Shown here: positions 621 to 53,590 of the stretch, in pieces
How the letters are laid out: every line of letters begins with the position of its first letter
How positions within the stretch are numbered: the stretch's first letter is position 1
Assembly (NCBI GenBank): GCA_963714975.1
Contig: CAVQQD010000002.1
Coordinates: forward strand, 1,176,462 to 1,240,461
Source: an uncultured Gammaproteobacteria bacterium
GTDB taxonomy: Bacteria > Pseudomonadota > Gammaproteobacteria > JAURND01
Reading direction: 5' to 3'
DNA: 64,000 nt
The notes under the pieces: model-generated
Told to the model about the DNA's origin: nothing
The model's database searches: none
What the model saw: only the letters and a program-made list of their open reading frames with translations
Position numbers and translations under genes: made by a program

Positions 621-626
621 AGCAAA

Positions 627-1057
627 CCTCGGGGGCTTGCGCCTCCGAGGCCGCGCCAAAAGAATGTTGATAGCATTCTTGAGGCACTTCCATAATCAAT
701 TAACCTAATACGAGGTTAACCGAAGATGGCCCAGAAAGCTTACTTCATTGCGTGTTCGTGTAAAACTCTTTTTTCGATGTTGCCCACATTTTTTTACCTG
801 GATTCTCCTAGGCGAATTGTTCACGCCTGGGAAAATTCGCTTGCATCCCATGGAATTTCCTCGACTGTCTTCGGTGGATTATGGGCTTGGGGTGCTAAGT
901 TACCGGTTTTTTGGTGGCCAACATCGATGCAGAGAGGGGTAAGCAAGTAAGAGAGGAACGGTATGGCGGGGTGATTTATATCGCCTCGCCATCCTAAAAT
1001 CTTCTGCTTGCCTACCCTGGTTCGATGCTTTTTTCGCATCCACCCAGGAACGCGCCG
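627..1057 (+). ncRNA. Structured 5' leader RNA of CDPS operon, copy 1
   Basis: At least seven stems shared with 50599-51034, with variable loops and compensatory changes. Confidence 0.65.
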
Positions 1058-1482
1058 ATGACTCCGAAAAAAATCAAACCCGTTTTCAAATACGAACAAA
1101 CTAACGCGCCAATTCCGTTCGATCAGGCGCATTGTTTACTGACGATTAGCGTCGGCCAAGAAGTGCATGAAGGCGAGCCATTCGCAGCGACCGTAGCTTT
1201 GGTGCGTCAGCAATTTGCGCGATGCACTCTGCTGATTGACGATACCCTGCAGCGCCACACCCTGGCATTATTGCACCCTGAACGCCGGGCGGAAGATTTT
1301 TTAGCCAGCGCACAACAAGAAGGCGAAGCGTGGTTAGCACGCAATCACTCTACTTATCAGCATTTACCACAGCTTAAAATAGTCCAGTGGGATGATTGGT
1401 TAAACCATCCGCGTTATCCCGCCACCTTTCGACGCGTTAACTATTTAGTGACTCAACACTCCGCTTACCAACACGCTATCAA

Positions 1483-3194
1483 CCTAAAAACGGCAGTTGA
1501 AGGACTTCCTAACCGATAAAACTCTGATCAAATATCTTCCAACAAAGTACCTTTTTTTCAATTTTATGTGGGTGCTGATAAACCAAGTGGTGGCTGCAGC
1601 GACTTTCCATTTAAATATTTTCCTACTGCTTGGCTCAAAATTCGATACCAACATTGATCATGTGTTAACTGCTCCGCATCTTTTTTTAATCCTTTAAAAA
1701 ATTTCACCACGCGGCTTAATAACATTTGAACTTTATTAATATTTCCATGCGTGCTGCTGATAACAATGTGTGTTTGTCTTGCATGGACAGTTTGTTTTGC
1801 CATAGCATGCAATAATAAGGGACGACTCGTAATAGCTTCTAAATGTTTGTCAGGTTCTGCCAGGCGAGCAAATATATTCCACCAATTATAAATAAGAGCA
1901 ACCACGCGCGACATAAAGCGGCAACGCTTCATGTCTTGGGTTGTAAACCCGCTCCAACCCCATTGATTTTTCAATTCATCAAATATATTTTCACTGTCCG
2001 CACGATCGCGATAATGTTGCGCAATAGTCAGTATTTCATCCGGTAATGAAGTAACTAATACAGCGTATTCATAAACATAGGTTTTATCATCAACCTCACC
2101 AAAACATATCTCTAATTGTTTTGTTCCTGCATGTTGTGAAATAAGCATTAAATTTTTTTGTATTTTTTTTCTCAACACGATGACTCGACGCGATCTTTCC
2201 CAACCATCTAATTTCAATAAGGCATCAGTCCCTTCCCAGCCCTGATCAGCAAAATACCAATCTTGACGAACCATTTTTACTTCTTCTATTAAACGCTTTA
2301 CATTCTTCGTTGATTTCAATTTAAATAAATAGGGTATTTGCTTTTCTTCAGCAATTTTCATCACACCATCTGTACCAAAAGCACAATCACCTCGCAAAAA
2401 TTGAGGCCACTGTGCACGCGGAATACGATCTAATAATTCCCATAAATCAGGCGCCGAATAACTGGATGCCATTTGATTACCAGGCTGTACTTCAACATCC
2501 AGTACTAAACGTAAATTGGCGATAAAATAGGAATGATAGGTATGAGAAGGGCGGCCAGGTTTTGTTGGATTATAACCCAATACAGCTCCTTCCTGTTTTC
2601 CATAAAGTACTTTAACTGTGGTATCAACATCTAATATCCATGGCACACTCAGCAATGGCACATAACATTTATTTAAATGTTTTTGTAGCCATACTATTCC
2701 AGCTTCTTCTTCCATTTTTACAAAAGCACGCCGGAGTGAATCTTCACTCACTATTTTTTTCATACCCAATAAATCTGGATTTACTCCATCACAACGCAAT
2801 GTAGTGATATGAGCATAGCGACTATGACCTGCTAAAACAGCTAATAACAGCGTACCTAAAATGTCACGATTTGAAGGAGCGTTGGGACTTACTAATTGCA
2901 ATGGACAATCTTCAACCCAAGGGTCAAATAAATTTCCAATCTTTAAAAATTCAATAAAAAATGCCAATTGTCCTAGCGGAGTTACAGCAGCTTGAGGATC
3001 CCATTCCACATAGATGCGACCACCAAAAGTATCTAGGGCTAATGAGACATTTTTGGCTAATAAATTTTCTTCTTTTAAGTCTTCTGGCAGTTCACCCGTT
3101 GGGTGAAGAGGAGCCGGAGGTAGTTTCATGCGATTTCCCCTGTAATTTTGTTATAAGGGTCGCATTATCTCATAGTTCAACTGCTTTTTTTAGG
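1483..3194 (-). mobile_element. IS1380-family insertion sequence
   Basis: Terminal IRs CCTAAAAACGGCAGTTGAA / CCTAAAAAAAGCAGTTGAA; ATCAA duplicated at 1478-1482 and 3195-3199; 1712 bp. Confidence 0.92.
1564..3129 (-). CDS. IS1380-family DDE transposase
   Basis: 521 aa; LDVDTT, RGDCAF and YRDRADSENIFDELK motifs. Confidence 0.9.
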   Translation of the reverse strand: MKLPPAPLHPTGELPEDLKEENLLAKNVSLALDTFGGRIYVEWDPQAAVTPLGQLAFFIEFLKIGNLFDPWVEDCPLQLVSPNAPSNRDILGTLLLAVLAGHSRYAHITTLRCDGVNPDLLGMKKIVSEDSLRRAFVKMEEEAGIVWLQKHLNKCYVPLLSVPWILDVDTTVKVLYGKQEGAVLGYNPTKPGRPSHTYHSYFIANLRLVLDVEVQPGNQMASSYSAPDLWELLDRIPRAQWPQFLRGDCAFGTDGVMKIAEEKQIPYLFKLKSTKNVKRLIEEVKMVRQDWYFADQGWEGTDALLKLDGWERSRRVIVLRKKIQKNLMLISQHAGTKQLEICFGEVDDKTYVYEYAVLVTSLPDEILTIAQHYRDRADSENIFDELKNQWGWSGFTTQDMKRCRFMSRVVALIYNWWNIFARLAEPDKHLEAITSRPLLLHAMAKQTVHARQTHIVISSTHGNINKVQMLLSRVVKFFKGLKKDAEQLTHDQCWYRILSQAVGKYLNGKSLQPPLGLSAPT

Positions 3195-3529
3195 ATCAAG
3201 CTAACCATTAGCACTTTTTTACAGCGTTACACTCAACGTCTGTCCCCTGAAATATTGAGACAATTTAATTACGCCCGTGCCCAGGAATTATGCCGGAATT
3301 ATGTCCTGGAAGAATGCACCGCGCTTTGTTTATGGCCGGAATTGCAGTGCCATTATGAGGTCTACCCCAGCCCACACAATGCCGCGATGACTTATACGCA
3401 TCAACAATTTCTGCTCCCGCGCTATCCCGATTTATTACACCCGATCTCGATTAAGTTTAAGCAGCGCAAGCAGTTCAAGCCGCAGCGCTTTGACTGCTTA
3501 CCGCCCACTCAAGCAGAAGGAGTGATGAA

Positions 3530-4710
3530 ATGACCCTCAATTTATTTTATATTCCCGAAATTATTTTTAGCTCGGCGCTTTTTATCAATGCCCTGCTGTT
3601 TATTCCACAATTTATCAAAATCCTCAAAGAAAAAACTGCCCAGGAAGTTTCCTTGCTGACCTTCGTCGGCTTTTGGCTAATTCAAGCCACCATTGTCTGG
3701 CACGGTTTTTTGCAGAGGGATTGGTGGTTGGTGTGGGGTTATATCTTCAGCATGTTCACCTGTGGCGCAGTGATTGTGGGCATTATTTTATATCGACAGC
3801 GTCCGCCCCCTGCCTCGCTGCAGGACCAATACGAATTACTCGACAATTTATTAGCGATCCTGCCAGAGCATTTGTATTGGATCGATCGCAAGGGGCGGTA
3901 TTTAGGTTGCAATAATCAGCAAGCCGAATCCGCAGGCCTGGCTTCGCGTGAAGACATTGTGGGCAAGCGCAATAGCGATTTGCCCTGGAATATCAATGCC
4001 GGGCAATTACCCGAAACTTTAGATGCACTCCATCAAAAAATCATGTGCACCGGTGAGGCACAGGTTGTCGAAGAACCAGCGGTGTTGCCCAATGGCCGCG
4101 AAGCAATTTTTCTCTCTCACAAAGTGCCGCTACATCGTCGCGGTCAAATTGTGGGGATGGCCGGTGTTTCGATTGATATTACCCGCCCGCATTGAAGCCG
4201 AAAAGGCGTTGCTGCAAGCCTTGCAAGCCAAAGACGATTTTCTGCACAATATCAGTCACGATTTGCGTACTCCGTTTTGTGGTCTGGTGACCATGACGGA
4301 ATCACTGGCATTAAATGAGGAAAATCCAGAACGGAAAATGGGACTGCAATGCATCATGGATTCGGCCGAAGCCTTACTCACTCATCTCAATGAAATTTTA
4401 GACTATGTGCGCTCCACAGCCGGCACCCCGGTGAGCCAAGTGGCTTTTGATTTACCGGCCCTGGTGCAAACCACCTATGCCATGTTGGCTCCAACCGCCC
4501 AAGCCAAGCAATTACATTTTACCTGGGAAGTGACCCAATCCCTGCCCACCAGTGTTTGTGGTGATCGGCTGCGCACCCAGCAAATTTTGTTACATGTTCT
4601 TGCCAATGCAATCAAATTCACACCCAAAGGCTTTGTGCGCTTGCAAACCGCGGTTGAATCTGAACAAGAACACCACTGGTTAATTCGCTTCACCGTAAGC
4701 GACAGCGGCA
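3530..4710 (+). pseudogene. PQ-loop/PAS histidine kinase, copy 1 (frameshift ~4190, truncated in HATPase)
   Basis: Matches 51800..53197 up to VSDSG at ~4710, then unrelated sequence; the rest of the ATP-binding domain is missing. Confidence 0.85.
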
Positions 4711-4994
4711 GAGGAAGTTATTGTCGAAATTACGCGACAATAAAAAAACAGCTGGGCATCTGCTATTTGGCTTGATTATTTTTTCTATGGTTACAGAAGG
4801 TAGTTTACAATTTACTCACTCGGGTAATATTTTTGGGCTAGAACCTCAAGCCGAGATATATTTAGCAATTGCTTTGTGTAGTACAGCTGTTTTAGCCCTC
4901 ATGATCAAAAAAGCAGTGACTGGCAATGTATTCTGCTTTACTTCAGAAGCAGGAGAAATTGCTGATACGCTGTATGCATTAAAAGGCAGTTGAC

Positions 4995-41334: not shown

Positions 41335-44300
41335 TTAGTTAGCTATTTTAAACACACGTAACTCTTGTAAGCAATCCAGTAATTTTTCCGCTAAAATTTT
41401 TACATGTGGCTCTTGAAACATCGTTTCATGATCACCTGGTGTCTGATGTCGTATTACTTTGAATGTTGAATATTTATCCCAATGATTAAAAGGCGCATCG
41501 TAAGGCTGATAAACGGAATTTACTTGCATGGCCTTAAACAAAGTTAGTGGAGCTCCTAACCGTGTAAACCGATAATTATCGAGCAATTTCGCGCGTTGCC
41601 ATTGCAAATCTAACAAGTGTTCAGCTTTAGTAATCCCTTTACTCAAAAATTGTGAACGCATCATATGATATTGCCTGCGCATCGCAGCTTCAAAAAATTC
41701 GGGATTGCGTAATTTATCTGGATGAGGTACCCAACCATCTAAAAGGGCAACCAATTCGATTAATTCACCTTGAACTATTAATTGGCGCGCCATTTCGAAA
41801 CTAATGATGGCACCACCTGAAGCACCACCTAATCGATATGGCCCCTTAGGCTGTACATGCCGCAGTGCTTGTAAATAAAAACTGGCCATATCTTCGAGCA
41901 ATTGAATACAACTTGATTAGATTTTTCTACCCCAGGATCTTGAATCCCATATAAAGGTTGATCTGGGTAAAAATATTTAATCAATGTTGTATACCAAAAA
42001 ACAGTTCCACCTACAGGATGAACTAAAAAAATCGGTGTTTTATTACCCAAAGGTTGTAACGGCACGATAGAGGATAAAAAGGTGGTTTGAGCTGATTGTT
42101 TTGTCGTTCTATATGTAAATTTCTCATTAATTAATTGATTTTCTATTATTTCCGCGGTCTCACTGATGGTTGATGCATCTAAAATTGAACGAATGGGTAA
42201 TTCCAAATTAAAATGTTGTTTTATTTTTAATAACATTTGCAAAGCAAGTAACGAATGCCCGCCTAAGATAAAAAAATTATCTAAGATACTCACTTTTTCA
42301 AGTCCTAATACTTCTCGCCAAATTTCAGCTAATTTTAATTCCACTGAATTACGTGGTGCTATAAATGGTTCCTCCATTAAAAAAGAAGCTTGATTGGGTT
42401 TGGGCAAGGCTACCTTGTCAACCTTACCGTTATTGGTCAGAGGTAGGTTTTCCAGAGAGATAAAAAAAGCGGGCAACATATATTCTGGCAAATAGTGTTT
42501 CAAATGAGTTCTTAATTCTCCCACATTAAAAGCTATCCCTTTTTTTAAAAGTAGATAAGCGATAATTTTTGGATAATTTTCTAAACTAATATTTAAGATA
42601 ACAGCAGCTTGTGCTATCGGAGGGAATTCTTCAATACGCATAGAGATTTCGTCTAAATCAATACGATGTCCACGAATCTTCACTTGATTATCAAGTCTTG
42701 CTAAATAGTCTAACTCCCCATTATCTAATCGCCTTACCCAATCACCGGTTTTATATAGCCGTTTAAACTCATTAAACAATAGAGTGGTTATAAAGTTTTT
42801 CTGCGTCAATTCTGCTGAACAATAACCACGTGCCAGCCAGGGACCTGCAACATACAATTCTCCTGGGATACCTAAAGGTACTGGCTGTAAATGGTGATCT
42901 AAAACATAAAGCGATACACCAGAAAATCCCTTACCTAAAGGATAGCGCAATCCAGCTATCAATTTATCCGAGGTAATTTCACAATGAGTAAGATGTACTG
43001 TTGCCTCAGTAATTCCATACATATTAATCAATTTTGGAAGGTGGTTATCGTGCGATTGAAACCATAGAGAAACTGAAGCAGGAGAAAGCGGTTCACCATC
43101 GAAAAAAATATAGCGTAAAAATAGCATCTTTTTAAGATTTCCATCTATAACAGCTAACTGAGTGAACGCTGAGGGTGTTTGACTTAAAATAGTTACTCGG
43201 TGTTTACCACTAGACTATAGAATTCATCGGCAGATCGAGCTATATCAAAAGGCACGATTACAAGGCTTGCACCGTGTAGTAATGCTCCCCAGATTTCCCA
43301 AACAGAAAAATCGAAAGCAATCGAATGAAATAAAGTCCAAATGTCATCGGATACAAAATCGAAGTGCTCATTAGCTGCAGTAATAAGATGAACCACGCTA
43401 TGTTGTTCTACCATAACTCCTTTTGGGTTACCCGTTGAGCCAGAAGTATACATCATGTACATCAAATCTTGTCCTTTGCATTCAACATCTAGGTTATGAA
43501 CGGATTCATTCATAACCAGTAACCAATCCTCGTCAATTAAAAATAATGAAATTTGAGGTAAAGTTTTAATATTGAGTTTAGAGATTAGAGCGCCTTGTGA
43601 AATCAAACTTTGTGCTGAACTATCTGACAAAATAAACTGGATTCGCTGAGATGGATAAATAGGATCAATAGGCAAGTATGCACCACCTGCTTTTAAGACA
43701 GCTAAAATTGCAACTATCATTTCCATGCCACGCTCTAAACAAATAGCTACAATCGACTCATTTTTTATCCCTTTTTTTTGTAAATGATGTGCCAATTGGT
43801 TAGCTTTATTGTTTAGCTGTGCATAAGTCAATTTTGAATTGGTAAATACTAAGGCCGTAGCTTCTGGAGTTTTTGTTACTTGTTCCTCAAATAATCGATG
43901 CGGGACTTTAGGAGGTATTGTCACAGGATAGCTTTGTGAATAATTAATCAATTGTGAAATTTCTATGGGGGATAAAAAATTAAGTTCATACCAATAACTT
44001 TCCTCCTCTTCAAGCATATTTTTTAATAAAGTTTTGATATGACCAACCATACTTTTTATTGTGTGCTCAGCAAACAAATTATGATCATAATTAAATTTTA
44101 AGCTTAAATAAGTACCTGGCAAAATAATAAAAGCTATTGGGTAGTGAGTTGGGTCATAAATAGTTGCCTTATCAAAAGGAAAAACCAAATTGCTATTGTT
44201 ATCTACAGGATAATTTTCAAATACAACTATGCTATCAAATAAATCAGATTCTGGAGTTAATTCCGACCACTCATTGATTGCTGTCAATGGTGTACTGGCA

Positions 44301-47300
44301 TGATCAAGCAAAACACTAAACCGCTGACGAACTTGACATAAGCAATCAATCAGCTTAGTTTTTTCTGTAAAGGTCACTCGGAGAGGAACAGTATTAATCA
44401 TCAATCCTAATGTGTTATCCACGCTCTTAAGTTCTGCTGGACGAGTAGATAATGTAACTCCAAACATTACATCACTGGCTTGATTATAACGTGCAAGAAG
44501 TAAAGCCCAAGCAGTCTGAAACAAAGTACTTAGAGTTAAGCCATGTTTTCTGGAAAATTTTTTTAATTCTTGAGTTAAGTTTACAGAAAGATCAAAACAG
44601 TCTATATGATAATCAGCTTCTGCATTTTTATCATTTAACACCTGTAAGACTTTCGTGGTGGTTGGAGAATAAAAACCTGCAAGGTATTCGCGCCAAAAAA
44701 ACTCTGTTGCCATAAAATTCTGTTTTTTGGTCCATTGAATATAGTTAGTAAAAGATCCAGCATGGGTTAAGCGAAGCGGCTGGTTTTCTAAATAGGCACT
44801 ATAAATTAAACTCAACTCACGGAACAAAACAGCAATACTCCACCCATCCAAACAAATATGATGGCAAGTTAAAATGATATGATAGCCACAAATTATTTCT
44901 TTGTCATCCAAGGTCTCTGTTATCATAATTAAGGTCGCACGTAGCAAGGGGGCTTGGGTAAAATCAAACCCCGCCTGGCGATCAGCAACTAAAAAGGTAT
45001 CTAATCTGGTTTTAACTTCAATCTCAGAATTATTCTGCCACAAATATTCCCGAACCGATAACACACAATCCGGATGGATAACTTGGATAGGCTCACCTAA
45101 TCCTTCCCATTCAAAGCTAGTACGCAAAATGGAATGTCGCCTAATGAGCTCTTGGAATGCTCGTTTTAATACTTCTGTCTGTAATGATTTTGAGTAAGTC
45201 CAGTGTAATTGAATTGTATATACAGCCGATTGTGGGCTATGGAGGGTATGTAATAATATACCTTTCTGCATAGCTGACAGAGGAAGAATGGTTTCTAGGT
45301 CCGGAGTTGCAGAAATTTTTTCCGAATTTTGACTCGTTGATTTAATTAATTCGATTAACAATTGCCGATATTTTTCCACCAACGCTCGTATAGTCGATTG
45401 TTGATAATGACGAAAGTTATAAGTGAATGATATGTGCAATTCAGCGGAGATAATCCACAAATTGATATCGATTACATAAGCGCGGCGATTTTTTCTACCA
45501 CTTTTCAAGTATATATTTGTAAGCTGAAAAACAGAGGACTTTGTTTTATTTTGTTTAAACTGTCCCCAATAATTAAAACTAATTTCTGCTTGAGGCTGAT
45601 CTTGCAAAGTTTGTCTCAGTGTAGTATCCGTTCCGAGGTAACGAAGAGTGCCATAGTTTACCTCATTATCTTTAATAGCTTGTCGCTGCTTTTTTACCTT
45701 TTCCAAGATAAGCTTCAGCGGAGCATTTTCTGGCCAAGTAACATGAAATGGGAATAAGCTAGTAAACCATCCTACGGTGCGTGACCAGTCCAATTGGCTG
45801 GTTAGCTCATGGCGACCATGACTCTCTAAGTCTACAAATAGGCAGGGATGATTTGTCCATTTTTCAACTATTTGAGCCAAAATAGTCAATAAAATTTCTT
45901 CGTGAGAACCGTTAATGCAACTTTTATCCATCTGCAAAAATTTTTGAGTAAAGTCTGTATTGAGTCTTATCGTATATTCATTACTTTCTTCTTCTAGATT
46001 GGTTGGCGATTCAAAATCTCTGGGGAGCTTAACTATATCATTGCCTAACAACCATGCTGATGATTCTGAAGATATTATATCAACATTGTTGTAAAGCTCC
46101 TTTGCCCAGTTTTTATAAGAAGAAGTCCTCGAAGGCAGAGCAGGATTGCGATTTTGTATCCAAGCTCGATATAAAGCCTCAAAATCTTCTAAAAAGATAC
46201 GCCATGAAACACCATCAATAATGAGATGATGTGCTATTAATAAAATTTTTACAAGTTTATTACGTTTTAAAAAAAAGACTGCCCCAAACAAAGGACCTTG
46301 TGCAAGGTCGAATTGAGCCATTATTTTTTCTTGCCAATAATTGATGGAATCGGATTCAAGTGAACAATTCTGATCTAAAAAAACACACTCTGATATAAAT
46401 CGAGAGTCAGTGCTATAATGCGATTTCCATCCCTTTTCTAGATTAGTAAATCGGCTACGCAAGACATCATGAAGCAATATTAACTGCTTCAATCCTTGCT
46501 GAATCTTCTCAATTGTTACTGGAACATTGATTTTAAGTACGCAAACCTGACACCATTGCTCAGGTTGAAAAAATGCTTGATTAAAGAACCAATGCTGAAT
46601 TGGAGTGAGTGGTATTTCCCCTTCCACGGAGACATTACAAGGGAAGAAAGTTATTTTCGGCATAACATTGACAGCTAAATCTTTTAAGATAGGATTAGCA
46701 AAAATTTGCCGAATGCGTAATGGTATATTCGATTGTCTTGCTTGAGAAACAACTTGCATTGCTAGGATAGAATCTCCACCCAATGAAAAAAAATTGTCAT
46801 CACTTCCAATATTTTTGAGACCTAATACTTTTTTCCAAATAACAGCTAAAGTTTTTTCGGTTGAGCTGCTAAGTTTAACACGAGATGGCTGTTTAAGCTT
46901 TGCGGGTACTTGATACATCTTAACCAATTTCTGAAAATCAAACTTAGCATTCGTCGTTAATGGAATTTCCGCAACTGCTTTGTAAGCATAAGGTAACATA
47001 AAAGCCGGTAATCTTTTGGCCAAATAATTTTTCAACTTTTTTTCATAGATTGTGAAAGACGTCTCTTTAAGTGGTTTGGTAACAAAAAAGGCAATTAGCT
47101 TATATTGGTTTGTGAGCAATATTGGCAAAACAACAGCTTGAATAAGGCCAGGAAATTTTAATAAATAGTGCTCAATTTCTTTTAATTCAATACGATTTCC
47201 TCGAATCTTGACTTGGTTATCCTTACGACCTAAATATTCGATATTTCCGCCTGGTAACCAGCGCACTAAATCCCCAGTTTTGTATGCACGCTTTTTATCA

Positions 47301-50144
47301 TGACCGATGCTCAACTCTCCTATAAATCCTTGAGTGATGCTCTCAACCTTGTGAGTATAACCCCGCGCTACGCCAATACCGCTTATGTAAAGTTCTCCCA
47401 CGACTCCTACAGGCACAGGAATATATTTTTGATCAAGAATATACGCTTGCATATTAGCCAAGGGTTTACCAATGGTCACCAAATCCTTTTGCACATTTAA
47501 TTCTGCTAATGTTGCATAAATAGTAGTTTCAGTAGGTCCGTATATATTATAAACATAACCACATTTTTTGAGCTGATCAGCCAAATTTTCAGGGAGTGCT
47601 TCACCAGCAGTTAATATTTTAAAATTCTTATTTCCAGACCACCCTATATTAACTAACATTTGCCAAGTACCAGGAGTTGCTTGCATCACTGTTACAGAGC
47701 GTTTATGCAGTAAGTATTTTATTTTTTCCCCATTCCTTCTGTCCTCATCACTTGCAATAACCACACAACCTCCTAAAGTAAGAGGGAGGTAATAATCTAG
47801 GGCTGCCACATCAAAAGCAATCGAAGTAACTGCTAGAAATTTATCATTATTTTCAACAATTATTGCATTTCGAATGGCCATCAGACAGTTGACGATACTT
47901 CTATGCTCCACTAATACTCCTTTAGGCTTACCAGTAGACCCAGATGTATAAATGATGTAAATCAATGTGGAAGAGGAATTTATAGTTTCTAGATTTTTAG
48001 GGGATTCTTTAGAAATTAACTCCCAATCTTTATCAATCAGAATCTGGTTATCAATCAGTTTGGTTAAACTATTTAATTGTTTTTTTAAGGATTGTTCCGT
48101 TAATAAAAATTTGCTTTTACAGTCTGCTAAGATTTCGCGCATTCTTGCCACTGGATATTCAGGATCAATCGGCACATAAGCACCCCCCGCCTTTAAAATC
48201 CCCAAAATCCCAACAATCATTTCAATACTACGTTCCATGCAAATTGCGACTAGAGTTTCAGCTGCCACTCCTTGCTGACGTAAATAATGCGCTAGTTGAT
48301 TGGCTTTTTGATTGAGCTCAGCGATAGGTGAGCAATTGATTTTCAAAACATACCGCAATTTTGTCGGGATGTTGTCGAACTTGTTCTTCGAATAATTGCG
48401 GGATAGTTTTATCGCGTGGATAGTCTGTTTCAGTTTGATTCCAATCGATTAAGAGTTGCTGTTGTTCTTGTGGCGTGAGTAGCGCTAAATCAGCGATAGA
48501 TGTTTCGGGTTGTGCAGTAATGGCGGTTAGCAGGGTTTCTAAATGGCCAGGCATTTGTTGCAGGATAGTTTTTAAGTACGGTTCTTGTGCTAAGCATTTT
48601 TGATCGACGTGCCAAGATAAACTACGATCTTTGGCAGATATCATCAATACCAAAGCGGCACGAGATTTTTGTAGCTGCTCGATTTCTCCAATCACTACCG
48701 CAGTAAACACGGCGTGTTTGACTTCGGTTAAAATTGGGTAACGATAAAATATATCGCGTAAATAACTGCTTTTTTCGTGCATGGCAAATAACTCAGCTTG
48801 TAATTGAGAGACTACTTGGCCGAAGTGTAATCCGTCTTGCAAGGCTGTGAAATACGGTAGTTCTAAACTCGTCCTGGCATGGATGCCAGGATCCAGATCA
48901 CTAGGATGTGAAGCATTATGATCAGGTAATTGCAGCAACACCCCTACTTTGGGTTGATTACCAAGGCGATAGAGGTAGACGAGCCAGAGAGCCAACAGCA
49001 AGGTGTTGAAATCGTAGGTGGGGTAATGTTGTTGTAATAATTTTTGTAGGGGTTCCGAGGGGTTCCATTGTTGCAGGTGATGGTATTCGTAATGAGCATT
49101 ATTAGGGGAATTCAGAAAAGGTATTTTGGCAGACTCGATGGTTTGCCATTGGGAAACCCAGTAGCTTTCATCGCCTCCTCCGCTCTTTAAATCCCCCCTG
49201 CCCCCCTTTTTCAAAGGGGGGATTTCCGCTCGGGCCTCCAGAGTGACTACATCACCTTCTAAAGTACAAATCTGCCGAATGGCAATGTCGTAAGTGGCAG
49301 TTGCAACGCGCCAATAGTCCGCAGTAGCAGTAACAATTGTTCCAGGCTCTGCAATCGATGGCTCGGGTAATAATTCTAATTTAGTGACAATAAATTCTTC
49401 CCAGCTTCCCTGTTGGGACGACGGTTCGCTCTGCTGGGATGACAACTTAAATTTAGGACAAGTAAAACGATTAGGATAAGAGCCAAATTGAGTAGCCCGA
49501 AATAATCGCTCAATAGCTTCAGCACTGGCATTCCAATCAATCCAGCCATCACCAGCAGGTTTCTGATGCAGGCCAAAATAGCTACGTTGACTTAAATCTT
49601 GAGGCTGGCATTGGTAACTGTGCTTCGCCAAAGATTTCACTAAATCAGGGAAGCTTTGCAGTGCGGCTTCATAGCACTTGAGATTTAAGCTTAGTGCAGT
49701 TTCATCTTCAGTAATTGGCACCATCACTTGCTGCAAAATATCACCGGCATCGACGGTTTCAATGGCCACATGCCAAGTGATGCCATGGCTCTTTTCTTGA
49801 TTTAAGATCGCCCAAGAAGTGGCGTGAACTCCCGCGTAACGCGGTAAAGGCGCATCATGAAAATTAATCGCAAATTGCCGAGGCAGATTGAGTATCGCAG
49901 CAGGCAAAATCTGCGCATTGACGATGCTCAATAAATAATCAAAAGGAGTCTTGTTGAGTGCTTCTTGGGCTGCTGCTAGAGAGGCATAGTGGGAAATTCC
50001 CTGTTGCAAGGCCCATAGTTCTGCGGCTTCATACGCAGAAATAATACCTAGTATTTGCTGTCCTTGTTGTTGGATAATTTTGGCACATTCCAGATGGAGA
50101 TTATCCTCTCCAATGATAAAACAAGTGAAAATATCGGGGGACAT
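41335..50144 (-). CDS. Two-module NRPS F-A-T-E-C-A-T-TE (apparent frameshifts ~48330, ~43200, ~41900)
   Basis: NFHDAPLPRYAG (F); YTSGSTGxPKG twice; GGDS and GGHS (T); HHLIIDGVSW, SRTVGWFTS (E); HHICLDG (C); GASGG (TE). Confidence 0.92.
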
Positions 50145-50598
50145 AGGATTGAAATGACTTCACGTTGGGTTTTTAAATTTTCCCTCCTCAATAAATTCCT
50201 AACAAATTTGTCATTCTAAGCGAAACGAAAGACCTCCCCCCTGACCTCCTAATCCCTACAGGAAGTACAATCCAAGGTAGGAAGCGAAACTTTCACATCC
50301 CTGTGGGTGGATCCTGACCTCCATGCCAGGACGACGCTTACTAGGAGGCCCTTCGGTTCGCTCAGAATAACAATGGGTTGGTCTGTCACGCTTGCGATAC
50401 TACCCAACCACGGTGACAGTCTACTAGCTTAAGGAAAAATTAACAAGTGTAGCAAAAGATTTATAAAAGAAACGGAAATTGCAAGCGGGGTGTGATGGGG
50501 CACTAAGAATAGATCAGTTGGAGAGAAGTTAAACCCTAAGATAAGCCGCCCTTAAGAAAAATTTGCATTTCAGCCAAAGTCAATGAATAATGATGAAA

Positions 50599-51034
50599 CC
50601 TCAGGGGCTTGCGCCTCCGAGGCCGCGCCAAAAGAATGTTAGTCGCATTCTTGAGGCACTTCCACAACAACAACCTGAATGTGAGGTTAGCCGTCATGAC
50701 AGCTCAAAGCTTATCGCATTGCGCGTTCGTACAAAACTCTTTTTTTGATGTTCACTTCATTTTTTCGCCTGGTTCGTCTAGGCCGGATTGGTATGCCTGG
50801 ATCAATTAGCTTTTACCCCATGAAAACTCCTCGATTGTCTTCGGCGTGATTGTGGACTTGGGGTGCGAGTACCGGTTTTTTGGTGGCCAACATCGATGAA
50901 GAGGGGTAAGCGAGTAGAGAGGGAATAGGTATGGCGAAGTAAGCTGTATTTTCCTCGCTTCGCCATCACCTACCAAATCTTCTGCTGCCTACCTGGTTCG
51001 ATGCTTTATTTCGCATCAACTCAGGAACGCGCCG
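50599..51034 (+). ncRNA. Structured 5' leader RNA of CDPS operon, copy 2
   Basis: Same stems as 627-1057 with compensatory substitutions. Confidence 0.65.
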
Positions 51035-51781
51035 ATGACTCCGAATAAAATCAAACCCGTTTTCAAATACGACAAAACTCACGCGCCCATTCCGTTTGAT
51101 CAGGCGCATTGTTTACTGACAATTAGCGTCGGTCAAGAAGTGCACGAAGACGAGCCATTCGCGGCCACCGTAGCTTTAGTGCGTAAGCAATTTGCAAAAT
51201 GCACTTTGCTAATTGATGATACCCTGCAGCGCCATACTCTGGCATTACTACACCCTATGCTTCGAGCGGAGGATTTTGTAGCGACTACGCAGCAAGCAGG
51301 CGCAGCCTGGTTAGCGCGCAATCAAATTGTTTATGAACAGTTACCGCAGCTTAAAATAGTGCAGTGGAATTATTGGTTAACTCATCCGCGTTATCCCGCC
51401 ACTTTCAAACGCGTCCACTATTTAGTGAGCGAATACCCAGCCTACCAACAGACTATACATAGCACCGTCCGCACCTTTTTACAGCGCTACACCCCACGGT
51501 TATCCCCTGAAGTGCTAAGACAATTTAATTACATCCGTGCCCAGGAATTATGTCGAGATTATGTCTTGGAAGAATGTACCGCGCTGTGTTTATGGCCGGA
51601 ATTGCAGTGCCATTATGAAATCTACCCCAGTCCACGCAATGCAGCGATGACTTATACCCATCAACAATTCCTGCTCCCACGCTACCCGAATTTGTTACAC
51701 CCGATCGCGATTAAATTTAAGCAGCGCAAGCAGTTCAAGCCGCAACGCTTTATTTCTTTGCCCCGAGTGAACCCAAGCTAA
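51035..51781 (+). CDS. tRNA-dependent cyclodipeptide synthase, XYP subfamily
   Basis: 248 aa; ISVGQ (catalytic Ser), DDTLQRH, YVLEE, EIYP. Confidence 0.85.
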   Translation: MTPNKIKPVFKYDKTHAPIPFDQAHCLLTISVGQEVHEDEPFAATVALVRKQFAKCTLLIDDTLQRHTLALLHPMLRAEDFVATTQQAGAAWLARNQIVYEQLPQLKIVQWNYWLTHPRYPATFKRVHYLVSEYPAYQQTIHSTVRTFLQRYTPRLSPEVLRQFNYIRAQELCRDYVLEECTALCLWPELQCHYEIYPSPRNAAMTYTHQQFLLPRYPNLLHPIAIKFKQRKQFKPQRFISLPRVNPS

Positions 51782-51799
51782 CTTAGAGGAGTCCCTTCG

Positions 51800-53197
51800 A
51801 TGCTACTGAACTTCCCTACCCTTTCTGATCTGTTATTGAGCAGCGCGCTTTTTATCAACGCGCTGCTGTTTATTCCGCAATTTATCAAAATCCTCAAAGA
51901 AAAAACTGCCCAGGAAGTTTCCTTGCTGACCTTTGTCGGCTTTTGGCTGATTCAAGCGACGATTGTCTGGCACGGTTTTTTGCAACGAGATTCGTTATTG
52001 GTGTGGGGTTATGCCTTCAGTATGCTCACCTGCGGCGCGGTGATTGTAGGCATTATTTTATATCGGCGGCGTCCGCCAAATGCTTCGCTGCAGGAGCAAT
52101 ACGAATTACTCGATAATTTATTAGCCATCATGCCAGAACATTTATATTGGATCGATCGCGAGGGGCGGTATTTAGGCTGCAATAATCAGCAAGCCGAATC
52201 CGCAGGCCTGGCCTCGCGTGAAGACATTGTGGGTAAACGTAATAGCGATTTACCCTGGAATATCAATGCCGGGCAATTACCCGAAACCTTAGATGCACTC
52301 AATCAAACCATTATGCGCACCGGCGAGGCACAAATTGTCGAAGAACCCGCGGTATTGCCGAATGGCCGTAAAGCAATTTTCCTTTCCCACAAAGTGCCGC
52401 TGCGTCGACGCGGTCAAATCGTGGGGATGGCGGGCGTTTCAATTGATATTACCGCCCACATCGAAGCTGAAAAGTCGATGTTGCAAGCACTGCAAGCCAA
52501 AGATGATTTTCTCCACAATATCAGCCACGATTTGCGAACGCCGTTTTGTGGTCTGGTGACCATGACGGAAACGCTGGCTTTAAACGAGGAAAATGCGGAA
52601 CGGAAAATCGGCCTACAATGCATTATGGATTCAGCCGAAGCCTTACTCAATCATCTCAATGAAATTTTAGACTATGTACGCTCCACCGCCGGCACTCCGG
52701 TAAGTCAAGCGGCCTTTGATTTACCGGCCCTGGTGCAAACCACTTATGCGATGCTAGCGCCGGCCGCCCAAGCCAAACAATTACATTTTACCTGGGAAGT
52801 GACCCAGTCTCTGCCCACCAGCGTTTGTGGTGATCGGCTGCGCACCCAGCAAATTTTGCTACATGTTCTCGCCAATGCGATCAAATTCACGCCCCAGGGG
52901 TTTGTGCGCTTGCAAACTGCGATTGAAGCCGAAGAAGCACACCAGTGGTTAATTCGCTTTACTGTGAGCGACAGTGGCATCGGCATTCCAGAAGATCAGT
53001 GCGCGAAAATCTTTGAACCCTTTCATCGCCTCACTCCTTCCTATCAAGCGCAGTATGCAGGCAAGGGGCTGGGATTAAGTCTCGTGAAACAATTTTTAAC
53101 CGAGTTAGGCGGTGAAATTCAGGTAGCAAGCACCCTCAACCAGGGCAGCACCTTCACTCTGTTCATTCCCTTCCAACGCATAGGAGACTATCCATGA
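51800..53197 (+). CDS. PQ-loop (SemiSWEET-like)-PAS sensor histidine kinase
   Basis: 3-TM N-terminus FIPQFIKILKEKTAQEVS; PAS; ISHDLRTP; NAIKFT, DSGIGI, GKGLGL. Confidence 0.9.
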   Translation: MLLNFPTLSDLLLSSALFINALLFIPQFIKILKEKTAQEVSLLTFVGFWLIQATIVWHGFLQRDSLLVWGYAFSMLTCGAVIVGIILYRRRPPNASLQEQYELLDNLLAIMPEHLYWIDREGRYLGCNNQQAESAGLASREDIVGKRNSDLPWNINAGQLPETLDALNQTIMRTGEAQIVEEPAVLPNGRKAIFLSHKVPLRRRGQIVGMAGVSIDITAHIEAEKSMLQALQAKDDFLHNISHDLRTPFCGLVTMTETLALNEENAERKIGLQCIMDSAEALLNHLNEILDYVRSTAGTPVSQAAFDLPALVQTTYAMLAPAAQAKQLHFTWEVTQSLPTSVCGDRLRTQQILLHVLANAIKFTPQGFVRLQTAIEAEEAHQWLIRFTVSDSGIGIPEDQCAKIFEPFHRLTPSYQAQYAGKGLGLSLVKQFLTELGGEIQVASTLNQGSTFTLFIPFQRIGDYP

Positions 53198-53590
53198 AAA
53201 ATGTATTACTCATCGAGCCTGATCCGATGATTGCCTATACCAACCCGCCGATTTTTTGAAAGCTTGCATTGCTGCGTCAACGTGGTCAATAGCGGACTCG
53301 CCGCTTTAGAAAAGCTGCATCAAGCCTATCGATTAATCGTGGTAACCCTGGATCTGCCAGACTTAAATGGCCTTATGATCGCGCGCCACTTGCGGCAAAG
53401 CAAAGGACCCAATAGTAAGACACCCATAGTTATTGTCACCACTCACGAAGATGCGCAGCAAAAAATCCAAGCCTATGAATTAGGAATCAAGGGATTTTTA
53501 CTGAAACCCCTGACGAAAGAATTATGCCGGCAGATGATCGACGATTTAGTATTATCAGCCGCAGCTCCTCATTATTTTTTAGAGGGTTAA
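53194..53590 (+). CDS. Single-domain atypical receiver protein (frameshift ~53243)
   Basis: MKNVLLIEPD from an ATGA overlap; YRLIVVTLDLPDLNG, PIVIVTT, FLLKP. Confidence 0.8.

Follow-up and report, generated by a model that had tools for sequence, protein, structure and literature searches.

A multicopy leader RNA family with an upstream open reading frame precedes signalling genes in an uncultured gammaproteobacterium

Introduction

What kind of element occupies the region upstream of a cyclodipeptide synthase (CDPS) gene in the genome of an uncultured gammaproteobacterium? The gene lies in a 64,000-nt stretch of contig CAVQQD010000002.1 (hereafter the window, meaning the whole stretch of DNA that was analysed), where the intergenic region between it and a divergent gene spans positions 50144-51034. 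An initial annotation, made from the two copies of the element that the window contains, had proposed that the ~430 nt in front of the CDPS start codon form a cis-regulatory RNA of an unrecognised kind. We have compared this region with its counterparts in the same 2.56-Mb genome (the source genome), in related genomes and in metagenomes. The comparison identifies a family of leaders that contain an upstream open reading frame (uORF), and we assign a probability of roughly 55% to the reading that this is a new cis-acting leader family in which translation of the uORF remodels a fold that masks the ribosome site downstream.

Results

A structured leader RNA lies between a predicted promoter and the CDPS start codon

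By sequence comparison, the 248-aa gene that follows the leader is a true CDPS. A phmmer search of the PDB aligned residues 6-230 of the 248 with 5ocd_A ('Cyclodipeptide synthase') at E 6.5e-53, and three more distinct CDPS sequences match at ~1e-29; Pfam is silent on this protein, and TIGR04539 reaches only 21.7 bits, which is below its cut-off.

Upstream, a consensus scan finds a TTGCAT-like/AATAAT-like hexamer pair that ends at position 50591, and the motif TTG[ACT][ACT]T-N15-19-nA[ACT]AAT precedes 39 of 42 copies of the leader. Since the position of this promoter is conserved, transcripts are likely to start at the 5' edge of the structure, which for the copy in front of the CDPS gene (A1) corresponds to a predicted start at ~50595-50599. 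The placement of the leader between a conserved promoter and a start codon is thereby borne out. The sequencing runs that share words with window positions 50300-51800 comprise two DNA runs from one study, with small shares, and no RNA run was listed among them.

The features of copy A1 and of the second leader in the window (copy A5, the 'copy 1' of the initial annotation) are listed below. Bit scores refer to CM R1, a covariance model of the 5' domain, and SD denotes a Shine-Dalgarno sequence.

50562-50591, plus strand: sigma-70-like promoter (TTTGCA/TTGCAT, 17-18-nt spacer, AATAAT; consensus scan)
50595-51034, plus strand: leader RNA copy A1, which extends over 440 nt from the predicted start up to the CDPS ATG (144.2 bits)
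50599-50622, plus strand: hairpin P1; five of eight pairs changed on both sides, 99.2% of cells paired in the source-genome copies
50625-50659, plus strand: hairpin P2; outer GCGCC/GGCAC with a conserved C-A mismatch, inner AAGAATG/CATTCTT with six of seven pairs changed on both sides in 44 sequences
50672-50688, plus strand: hairpin P3 (AACCT...AGGTT); all five pairs changed on both sides, 77.9% of cells paired in 44 sequences
50696-50809, plus strand: uORF remnant, 37 codons plus stop; the stop is shared with ORF 50609-50809
50709-50911, plus strand: central multi-helix domain with P5, P6, P7 and three conserved U-tracts, closed by the long-range helices Ha, Hb and Hc
50709-50715/50905-50911, plus strand: long-range helix Ha; one-sided changes only
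50917-50982, plus strand: long hairpin P8; its beginning coincides with the uORF stop codon in intact copies, and the variable tip hosts insertions in some copies
50992-51026, plus strand: last hairpin (CCTGG...CTCAGG), from folds of individual copies; its 3' strand overlaps the CDPS SD AGGA (51023-51026)
51035-51781, plus strand: CDPS gene, 248 aa (phmmer against the PDB)
624-1057, plus strand: leader RNA copy A5, with an intact 74-codon uORF at 726-950 (150.7 bits)

The individual helices that had been described for copy 1 proved to be present. They include P1 (627-650), the inner part of P2 (660-680) and P3 (702-717), as well as the long-range helices Hc, in which TCGATGTTG (774-782) pairs with CAACATCGA (919-927), and Ha, in which GCTTAC (738-743) pairs with GTAAGC (939-944). 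Two of the helices are compensated between the copies as had been reported, namely P6 (CCTAGGC/GCCTGGG in copy 1, TCTAGGC/GCCTGGA in copy 2) and P8i (ATGGCGGGG/CCTCGCCAT in copy 1, ATGGCGAAG/CTTCGCCAT in copy 2). The last hairpin before the ATG was likewise recovered, at 1016-1048 in copy 1 and 50992-51025 in copy 2. The statement that this ATG has no strong SD must be corrected, as an AGGA lies 8 nt before it, within the 3' strand of the last hairpin.

Members of the family are ~430-520 nt long. P1 is absent from the relatives, whose RNA begins at P2. The flanks of P2, GCGCAC and CACUUCCA, are conserved across genera; a C-rich linker joins P2 to P3, and the 3' strand of P3 is the SD of the uORF. 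Position 950 of copy 1 is both the end of the uORF and the first base of the 5' strand of P8. In the alignment of source-genome copies, the tip of P8 is the only place that tolerates insertions. Copies of types C and B (L019:1925-2010, L021, L022, L020, L016 and L017) carry palindromic inserts of 40-90 nt at this tip, for example GTCATCCCGAG...CTCGGGATGAC, which resemble small mobile hairpin repeats that settled at a site where the RNA can accommodate them.

The leader belongs to a multicopy family

A DNA search yielded 25 matches to the leader in the source genome, nhmmer recovered 17 copies at E <=2.3e-27, and CM R1 gave 26 matches. Full-length copies number 16 and fall into four subfamilies (A-D). 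The weaker matches yield two further subfamilies, E and F, with ~6 copies between them, and several fragments bring the divergent or fragmentary copies to ~10. The genome carries at least 22 copies.

Relatives elsewhere are beyond the reach of BLAST, with which a 505-nt leader matched none of 40 related genomes, and they were therefore found only by covariance models. CM R1 has matches in five of the eight other genomes of the same family, with two to six copies each, and in G093, which belongs to another family; the order comprises just those nine genomes. An exact pattern of 21-plus bases from the uORF start region was found in seven stretches from two assemblies among 185,579 species genomes, both labelled Gammaproteobacteria bacterium, and in four metagenome stretches.

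Marginal CM matches in G054, G069 and G081 (E 0.002-0.006) were rejected because they show no arrangement of SD, ATG and uORF: nothing of the kind is present in L034 and L035, and the frame in L033 is a 50-codon one that starts with TTG. Weak R2 matches in G122, G099, G127, G151, G143 and G013 (E 1e-5 to 9e-4) keep the 5' module in front of other ORF bodies and are regarded as leads only. Three of these weak matches, L074 (G127), L073 (G099) and L075 (G151), precede small frames that share a helical DF-x-DF sequence, such as ...SGDDFLDFHQDVLRDYG..., and that appear to encode genuine small proteins, in contrast to the uORF peptides of the main family, which are unconstrained.

No established RNA family accounts for these sequences. 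A scan of the whole window against Rfam 15 at the gathering threshold passed only two tRNAs, and a permissive scan of 50450-51100 (E up to 10) gave eight matches, mostly on the wrong strand, the best of which scored 22.3 bits against a gathering score of 69. Even at E up to 10, the T-box model RF00230 gave no match, and the earlier suggestion that the leader senses tRNA charging has no support. We found no description of this leader in the literature on DUF3050, on CDPS leaders or riboswitches, or on structured RNAs with a uORF, although the supplementary motif lists of PMC8632094, PMC11109978 and PMC6429828 could hold it. The leader family appears to be previously undescribed and is of the cis-regulatory, leader-with-uORF kind.

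Covariation supports a fold on the sense strand

Alignment-based folding of the 16 full-length source-genome copies predicted 77 pairs, 30 of which show compensatory change. In a hand-curated structure of 90 pairs and 13 helices on the same copies, 93.0% of cells are paired, compared with 43.6-49.9% when the partners are slid against each other, and 30 pairs are changed on both sides, compared with 5-13 in the slid controls. The covariation score of this structure is 0.338, the controls remain at or below 0.126, and none of 500 shuffles reaches 0.338. Beyond P1, P2 and P3, the pairs changed on both sides in these copies include six of 10 in Hc, four of six in P5 and six of eight in P7, while Hb shows one-sided changes only. 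All of these values must be read with the knowledge that the sequences used for counting are also those from which the structures were derived or to which they were fitted, that the CM alignment is fitted to its model, and that copies within one genome are paralogous kin and not independent observations.

The signal persists when relatives are included. In the 5' domain, 44 sequences give 87.0% of cells paired, compared with 29.1-39.2%, and 28 of the 31 pairs are changed on both sides, so that the covariation first seen between two copies extends to a much larger collection of homologous leaders. An independent alignment of full leaders from 11 relatives yields 55 pairs, of which 22 are compensatory, with 91.3% of cells paired compared with 38.9-47.2%. 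In the hairpin of the relatives that is equivalent to P8, six of nine basal pairs are changed on both sides. The relatives have the same overall plan, in which P2 and P3 are joined by the uORF, by a central domain of hairpins, by a long hairpin where the uORF stops and by a small one in front of the gene.

Cells with G-U outnumber those with A-C by 169 to 32 and by 103 to 14, and this excess indicates that the fold belongs to the plus strand. With the Rfam result and the extended covariation, the original description of the element as an unrecognised structured RNA of the sense strand is upheld.

The uORF is conserved in position and extent but not in peptide sequence

An SD and an ATG or GTG directly 3' of P3 occupy the same place in all clades. 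In 15 of the 16 full-length source-genome copies, the uORF that starts there has 73-75 codons and a common stop; copy A1, in front of the intact CDPS gene, is the sole exception, with 37 codons. The uORFs of the relatives have 57-79 codons. Of 41 copies, 36 keep this frame open over 57 codons or more (median 70), and the other two sense frames reach that length in seven and two (medians 3 and 11). This count leaves aside the weak CM matches L042 and L046, the marginal L033-L035, L049 (uORF cut at 31 codons, with an IS66-family transposase frame downstream), the source-genome copies E1 (uORF fused to a 287-aa frame), E4 and E5 (both fragments), the copy at C2:391058 (5' half replaced) and L080, a later find. 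The earlier observation that indels break the uORFs thus applies to copy A1 but not to the family.

The amino acid sequence shows no corresponding constraint. The three codon positions show a flat profile of substitutions per column (30.1, 32.0 and 33.2 at positions 1, 2 and 3), and the uORF codons that differ are mostly nonsynonymous. About 26 codons are read in different frames in A compared with C and D types; the indels involved (-1, +3 and +1) bring the frame back into register ahead of the common stop. Six uORF peptides gave no Pfam match at E up to 1, and a word-based protein search over a length range of 41-132 residues returned no homologue candidate. No consistent hydrophobic segment is visible by eye in the peptides, and no run of codons for a sensed amino acid is obvious in the printed peptides, of which no dedicated count was made. 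The idea that the uORF encodes a normal protein was rejected, as there is neither a codon-position signal nor a protein family or homologue. Minus-strand ORFs of 84-107 aa that cover the 3' part of the leader were also set aside, given that their positions and frames vary between subfamilies; the minus frames carry two to six stops in the uORF region.

The end of the uORF is tied to the structure. Its stop is the first base of P8 in the source-genome copies and falls inside the 5' strand of the P8-type hairpin in relatives, and the first and last uORF codons pair with each other. As the comparison indicates, what is conserved in the uORF is its ability to start, to be read through and to stop at one structural place, and not the peptide. 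The uORF is central to the leader family rather than dispensable.

The leader precedes receiver, synthase and sensor genes

The leader had been viewed as belonging to the CDPS gene, but only six of the 16 full-length source-genome copies precede CDPS frames, two of them intact (A1 and A4) and four truncated. The other 10 precede single-domain receiver proteins of 127-174 aa, eight intact and two broken, and types E and F precede further receiver proteins. A third intact CDPS frame follows the copy at C2:391058, outside the 16, in which the 5' half of the leader is replaced. Among the receiver-domain (REC) matches of the genome, 17 of 41 lie within 3.5 kb behind a leader, and these receivers are paralogues with 44-54% identity.

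The position of the start codon and its orientation relative to the leader are constant in all 16 full-length copies, and at its 3' end the conserved region extends into the start codon and opening codons of the gene behind it. In 13 of the 16 (types A, C and D), the 3' strand of the last hairpin contains the main SD, which there faces three different anti-SD sequences. The response regulators behind type C leaders (L019:2073-2567) begin with MNDNNIKPAFKCF, which resembles the CDPS start MTPNKIKPVFKYD (window 51035-51075), and in copy A6 the CDPS N-terminus is fused directly to a receiver. It seems that the leader and the first ~13 codons moved as a unit, or that the loci of the response regulator type arose through deletion of the CDPS and histidine kinase genes. 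A 402-aa frame (MKIQQAFKFRIEPNGAQKRAM...), which may be related to IS200/IS605 OrfB/TnpB, is inserted behind two leaders, at C3:470957 (B1) and C1:104012 (E7), and cuts the response regulator gene in B1.

Relatives carry a DUF3050 gene and then a PAS sensor behind the leader. In L038, L053, L032, L063 and L065, from relatives and metagenome contigs, a DUF3050 protein of 254-269 aa is followed by a PAS sensor of ~386-390 aa, which parallels the CDPS-kinase pair. MgoB of the Pseudomonas mgo operon is described as a DUF3050 protein in PMC3298696. In two other families, the 5' module stands in front of CsrA: L029 (G093) has P2, P3, SD and ATG, a short uORF and then csrA as named by Pfam, and L076 (G143) precedes a CsrA-like frame named by eye. 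The short uORFs of these two have 33-39 codons, and the arrangement hints at an older link between the 5' module and CsrA. The source genome has one csrA, which is without a leader. The conclusion that the leader belongs specifically to CDPS genes must therefore give way to a broader association with single-domain response regulators, DUF3050, CsrA and others.

Discussion

A model for uORF-dependent control

In the reading that we favour, the leader would act in cis and post-transcriptionally. Two ribosome sites appear to be masked in the modelled fold, the SD of the uORF in P3 and the main SD in the last hairpin, a few bases past P8. The P2-P3 module would decide whether ribosomes load on the uORF, and its input could be a small RNA, a ligand or a protein, for example CsrA. 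As they translate the uORF, ribosomes would then open up the central domain, and their termination at the foot of P8 may remodel or open the neighbouring hairpin that hides the main SD. The change might run through alternative pairings between U-rich and purine-rich tracts; many such pairings are available to the three conserved U-tracts and the purine stretches. Translating ribosomes would also shield the long leader from polarity. We infer both the translation of the uORF and the direction of control. The leaders would in this way tie at least 20 genes into one regulon, composed of orphan single-domain response regulators and operons for signal synthases and sensors, such as the CDPS, histidine kinase and response regulator genes of the present locus.

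Several observations weigh against this model. The leader of the intact CDPS gene in question has a broken uORF, and the intact CDPS gene at C2:391058 stands behind a leader without its 5' half, so the gene can be kept without the uORF. Since its uORF is broken, copy A1 is probably deregulated or decaying. Many loci are damaged, with the CDPS truncated in four of six cases and the response regulator frame broken in two of 10 full-length copies, and part of the family may accordingly be in decay instead of functioning. From the uORF stop to the main SD further downstream the distance is 110-190 nt, which means that coupling between the uORF and the main gene must work through structure. Helix Ha stays complementary (92% and 87% paired), but its changes are one-sided only, in either clade. 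Folding energy does not favour the sense strand (z -2.90 for plus, -3.63 for minus) and was set aside as an uninformative guide to the strand. A switch between alternative folds could not be demonstrated, as the candidate helix, formed by the uORF end with GCYUACC after P8, is no better than shuffles: 31 to 498 of 500 do as well, depending on the source-genome copy. It was rejected on this evidence and is kept as a lead because the matching helix in relatives covaries.

A scan of the copy in front of the CDPS gene, window 50100-51100, found no intrinsic terminator-like site. The classical attenuation scheme is therefore not available, and control is more likely to be translational or to proceed through Rho-dependent polarity. 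Intrinsic attenuation was rejected on the same ground, and the conserved GGUUUUUU tract follows only a 3-bp closing helix.

Alternative explanations

An unlikely alternative is a riboswitch-like or protein-binding leader whose fold responds to a protein or to a small molecule, such as a cyclodipeptide or the product of DUF3050, and directly hides or exposes the main SD, the uORF being a passenger that is open only to avoid polarity. Such a leader would suit the large conserved and covarying structure with its conserved unpaired stretches GCGCAC and CACUUCCA, the masked main SD in 13 of 16 source-genome copies and the unconserved amino acids of the uORF, and the synthase and sensor operons behind it would fit an autoinduction loop. 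However, the SD and start of the uORF are fixed at one position in all clades and have their own covarying mask in P3, compensating indels restore the uORF frame so that it ends at the same structural position, and no known aptamer was matched. If P2-P3 bound the product of the synthase encoded behind some copies, a cyclodipeptide here and the DUF3050 product in relatives, this might unmask the uORF SD, and translation of the uORF would switch on the gene, which would make the leader an RNA-level receiver of a diffusible signal. We hold this to be quite improbable, but if it were true, the more than 20 leaders would represent an RNA-based regulon resembling quorum sensing that includes its own synthase operons (autoinduction) and the orphan response regulators. 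Still less probable is that a transcript of ~330-450 nt is itself the product, a trans-acting or dual-function RNA, for instance a sponge for CsrA or another RNA-binding protein, with read-through being secondary. GGA occurs in several conserved purine tracts, the 5' module precedes csrA in G093 and, by eye, a CsrA-like frame in G143, and the source genome has one csrA gene; yet this csrA has no leader, the GGA motifs lie mostly in stems and not in hairpin loops, no terminator is predicted before the main gene, and the conserved region ends in the start codon and first codons of that gene.

It is distinctly unlikely, though not as remote as a diffusible-signal receiver, that the element is a self-contained small-gene module, that is, a self-masking mRNA for a ~70-residue peptide of the kind seen in hok/mok type I toxin-antitoxin systems, which has multiplied with an incidental gene behind it. 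The many copies, the many broken neighbourhoods with IS insertions, the masked SD, the pairing of the start and end of the ORF and the kept length of ~70 codons would all be compatible with this idea. It is contradicted by the flat codon-position profile with its mostly nonsynonymous differences, by the segment that different subfamilies read in different frames, and by the failure of Pfam and the word-based protein search to assign the peptides to a family. In addition, a consensus scan of the single copy A1 found no promoter-like site on the minus strand between 50592 and 51034, and every complete copy is followed at a fixed short distance by a co-oriented gene whose SD lies in the last hairpin. 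The lowest probability of all goes to a dispersed selfish repeat, either similar to a miniature inverted-repeat transposable element (MITE) or a relic of segmental duplication, which has no regulatory role and whose stems are palindromic relics. The initial annotation had named a dispersed repeat as an outcome that would overturn its proposal, and with at least 22 copies the element formally is one; both window copies lie inside a segmental duplication of 86% identity, and other short repeats and IS elements are abundant nearby. The copies are nevertheless oriented leaders that bear promoters and not junk repeats. Compensatory changes affect many helices, and the architecture is kept in genera below BLAST detection; promoter, uORF and orientation to the downstream start codon are all conserved, and the exact 21-plus-base pattern is confined, among the 185,579 species genomes, to the seven stretches mentioned above. 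The constant placement relative to the start codon in the 16 copies argues specifically against a MITE, for whose terminal repeats no dedicated search was made.

Genomic setting of the two window copies

The genes around the two leaders are as follows.

48318-50144, minus strand: formyltransferase-condensation gene of a nonribosomal peptide synthetase (NRPS) (Pfam)
51800-53197, plus strand: PQ-loop/PAS/HisKA/HATPase histidine kinase (Pfam), which begins the rest of the CDPS operon (51800-53590)
53231-53590, plus strand: receiver-domain frame (Pfam), last in the CDPS operon
1058-1519, plus strand: truncated CDPS frame of copy 1, 153 codons long and interrupted by an insertion at ~1474-3210

The NRPS genes form a pair on the minus strand (43193-50144) that diverges from the leader promoter region and encodes a 608-aa formyltransferase and condensation protein and a 1721-aa frame. 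The receiver frame at 53231-53590 is 52-54% identical to the type C response regulators behind other leader copies.

Both window copies belong to a segmental duplication, in which positions 1-1473 match 49966-51450 at 85.8% identity and positions 3211-4710 match 51471-52979 at 86.5%. The 5' end portion of the 608-aa NRPS gene (49966-50144) falls within the duplicated segment. The insertion that splits the CDPS of copy 1 (1474-3210) contains a gene for a 521-aa DDE transposase (PF13701/PF01609) on the minus strand at 1564-3129, and the duplicated segment resumes at 3211. Downstream, the copy-1 histidine kinase occupies two overlapping frames (3530-4195 and 4023-4775) whose paralogue at 51800-53197 is a single 465-aa frame, which looks like a frameshift in a decaying duplicate. 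A short repeat of ~58 nt (window ~50279-50336) lies upstream of the leader promoter; it has ~25 copies over three contigs at 78-95% identity and is unrelated to the leader family.

Comparison with known systems

Few cis-regulatory RNAs reach 20 or more copies in one genome, and few are so large. The leader offers a clean natural case for the cooperation of uORF translation and RNA folding in bacteria. It links orphan response regulators with CDPS-histidine kinase and DUF3050-PAS operons into a presumptive regulon of an uncultured gammaproteobacterial order, and it provides a handle on signalling in organisms that are known only from assemblies.

Several well-known RNAs share some of these features. 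OLE, GOLLD, ROOL and raiA resemble the leader in being longer than 400 nt, in having many covarying helices, in their narrow taxonomic range and in their discovery by comparative means; however, they are free-standing non-coding RNAs, whereas the leader runs into a start codon and holds a conserved frame. The hok/mok mRNA is likewise a message of ~400 nt with covarying long-range pairing, a masked SD, a ~70-codon frame, several copies and frequent IS hits. In contrast to hok/mok, no conserved hydrophobic toxin and, in the scan of copy A1, no antisense promoter were found here, a co-oriented downstream gene with a masked SD is always present, and the flat substitution over codon positions and the lack of a family match do not agree with a type I toxin. 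Leaders regulated by CsrA have at least two GGA motifs that overlap the SD and typically sit in hairpin loops; in the present leader, GGA occurs in both SDs and in the conserved purine tracts, but mostly in stems. T-box leaders (RF00230) also act in cis and occur in many copies per genome, and the sensing of tRNAs would fit a CDPS as a user of aminoacyl-tRNAs, but there is no match at E up to 10, and most copies of the present leader precede response regulators, not tRNA or amino acid genes.

In its proposed working, the leader resembles leader-uORF systems and riboswitch-uORF tandems. In the arrest systems SecM-secA, MifM-yidC2 and VemP-secDF2, a long uORF of tens to more than 100 codons precedes a gene whose SD is held in a hairpin, and the ribosome on the uORF opens this hairpin. 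The present uORF differs in that it has no conserved C-terminal arrest motif and no signal or membrane segment; its peptide is unconstrained, with C-terminal halves that differ between subfamilies even in reading frame, and the masked SD is more than 100 nt (110-190 nt) from the uORF stop, with P8 in between. A riboswitch and uORF of Mycobacterium tuberculosis (PMC11260477) share the logic of a structured 5' element that controls translation of a uORF and, through it, the gene behind. There the sensor is a recognisable B12 aptamer, whereas the 5' module described here has no Rfam match.

Leader-peptide attenuators, such as those of trp and pyrBI, are alike in having a promoter-proximal leader with a small frame that has its own SD inside a conserved structure, and the position of the ribosome is thought to choose between alternative folds. 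The ilvB-II motif of Corynebacterium (PMC10272879) is a further example. The present uORF does have its own SD and start codon, as in a classical attenuator, but it is longer, with 57-79 codons compared with ~14-44. Neither a regulatory codon run nor, in the one copy scanned, an intrinsic terminator is seen. Attenuators of this kind serve one biosynthetic operon, whereas the leader reported here, with its 430-520 nt and ~14 helices, is found at least 22 times in a single genome, in front of signalling genes.

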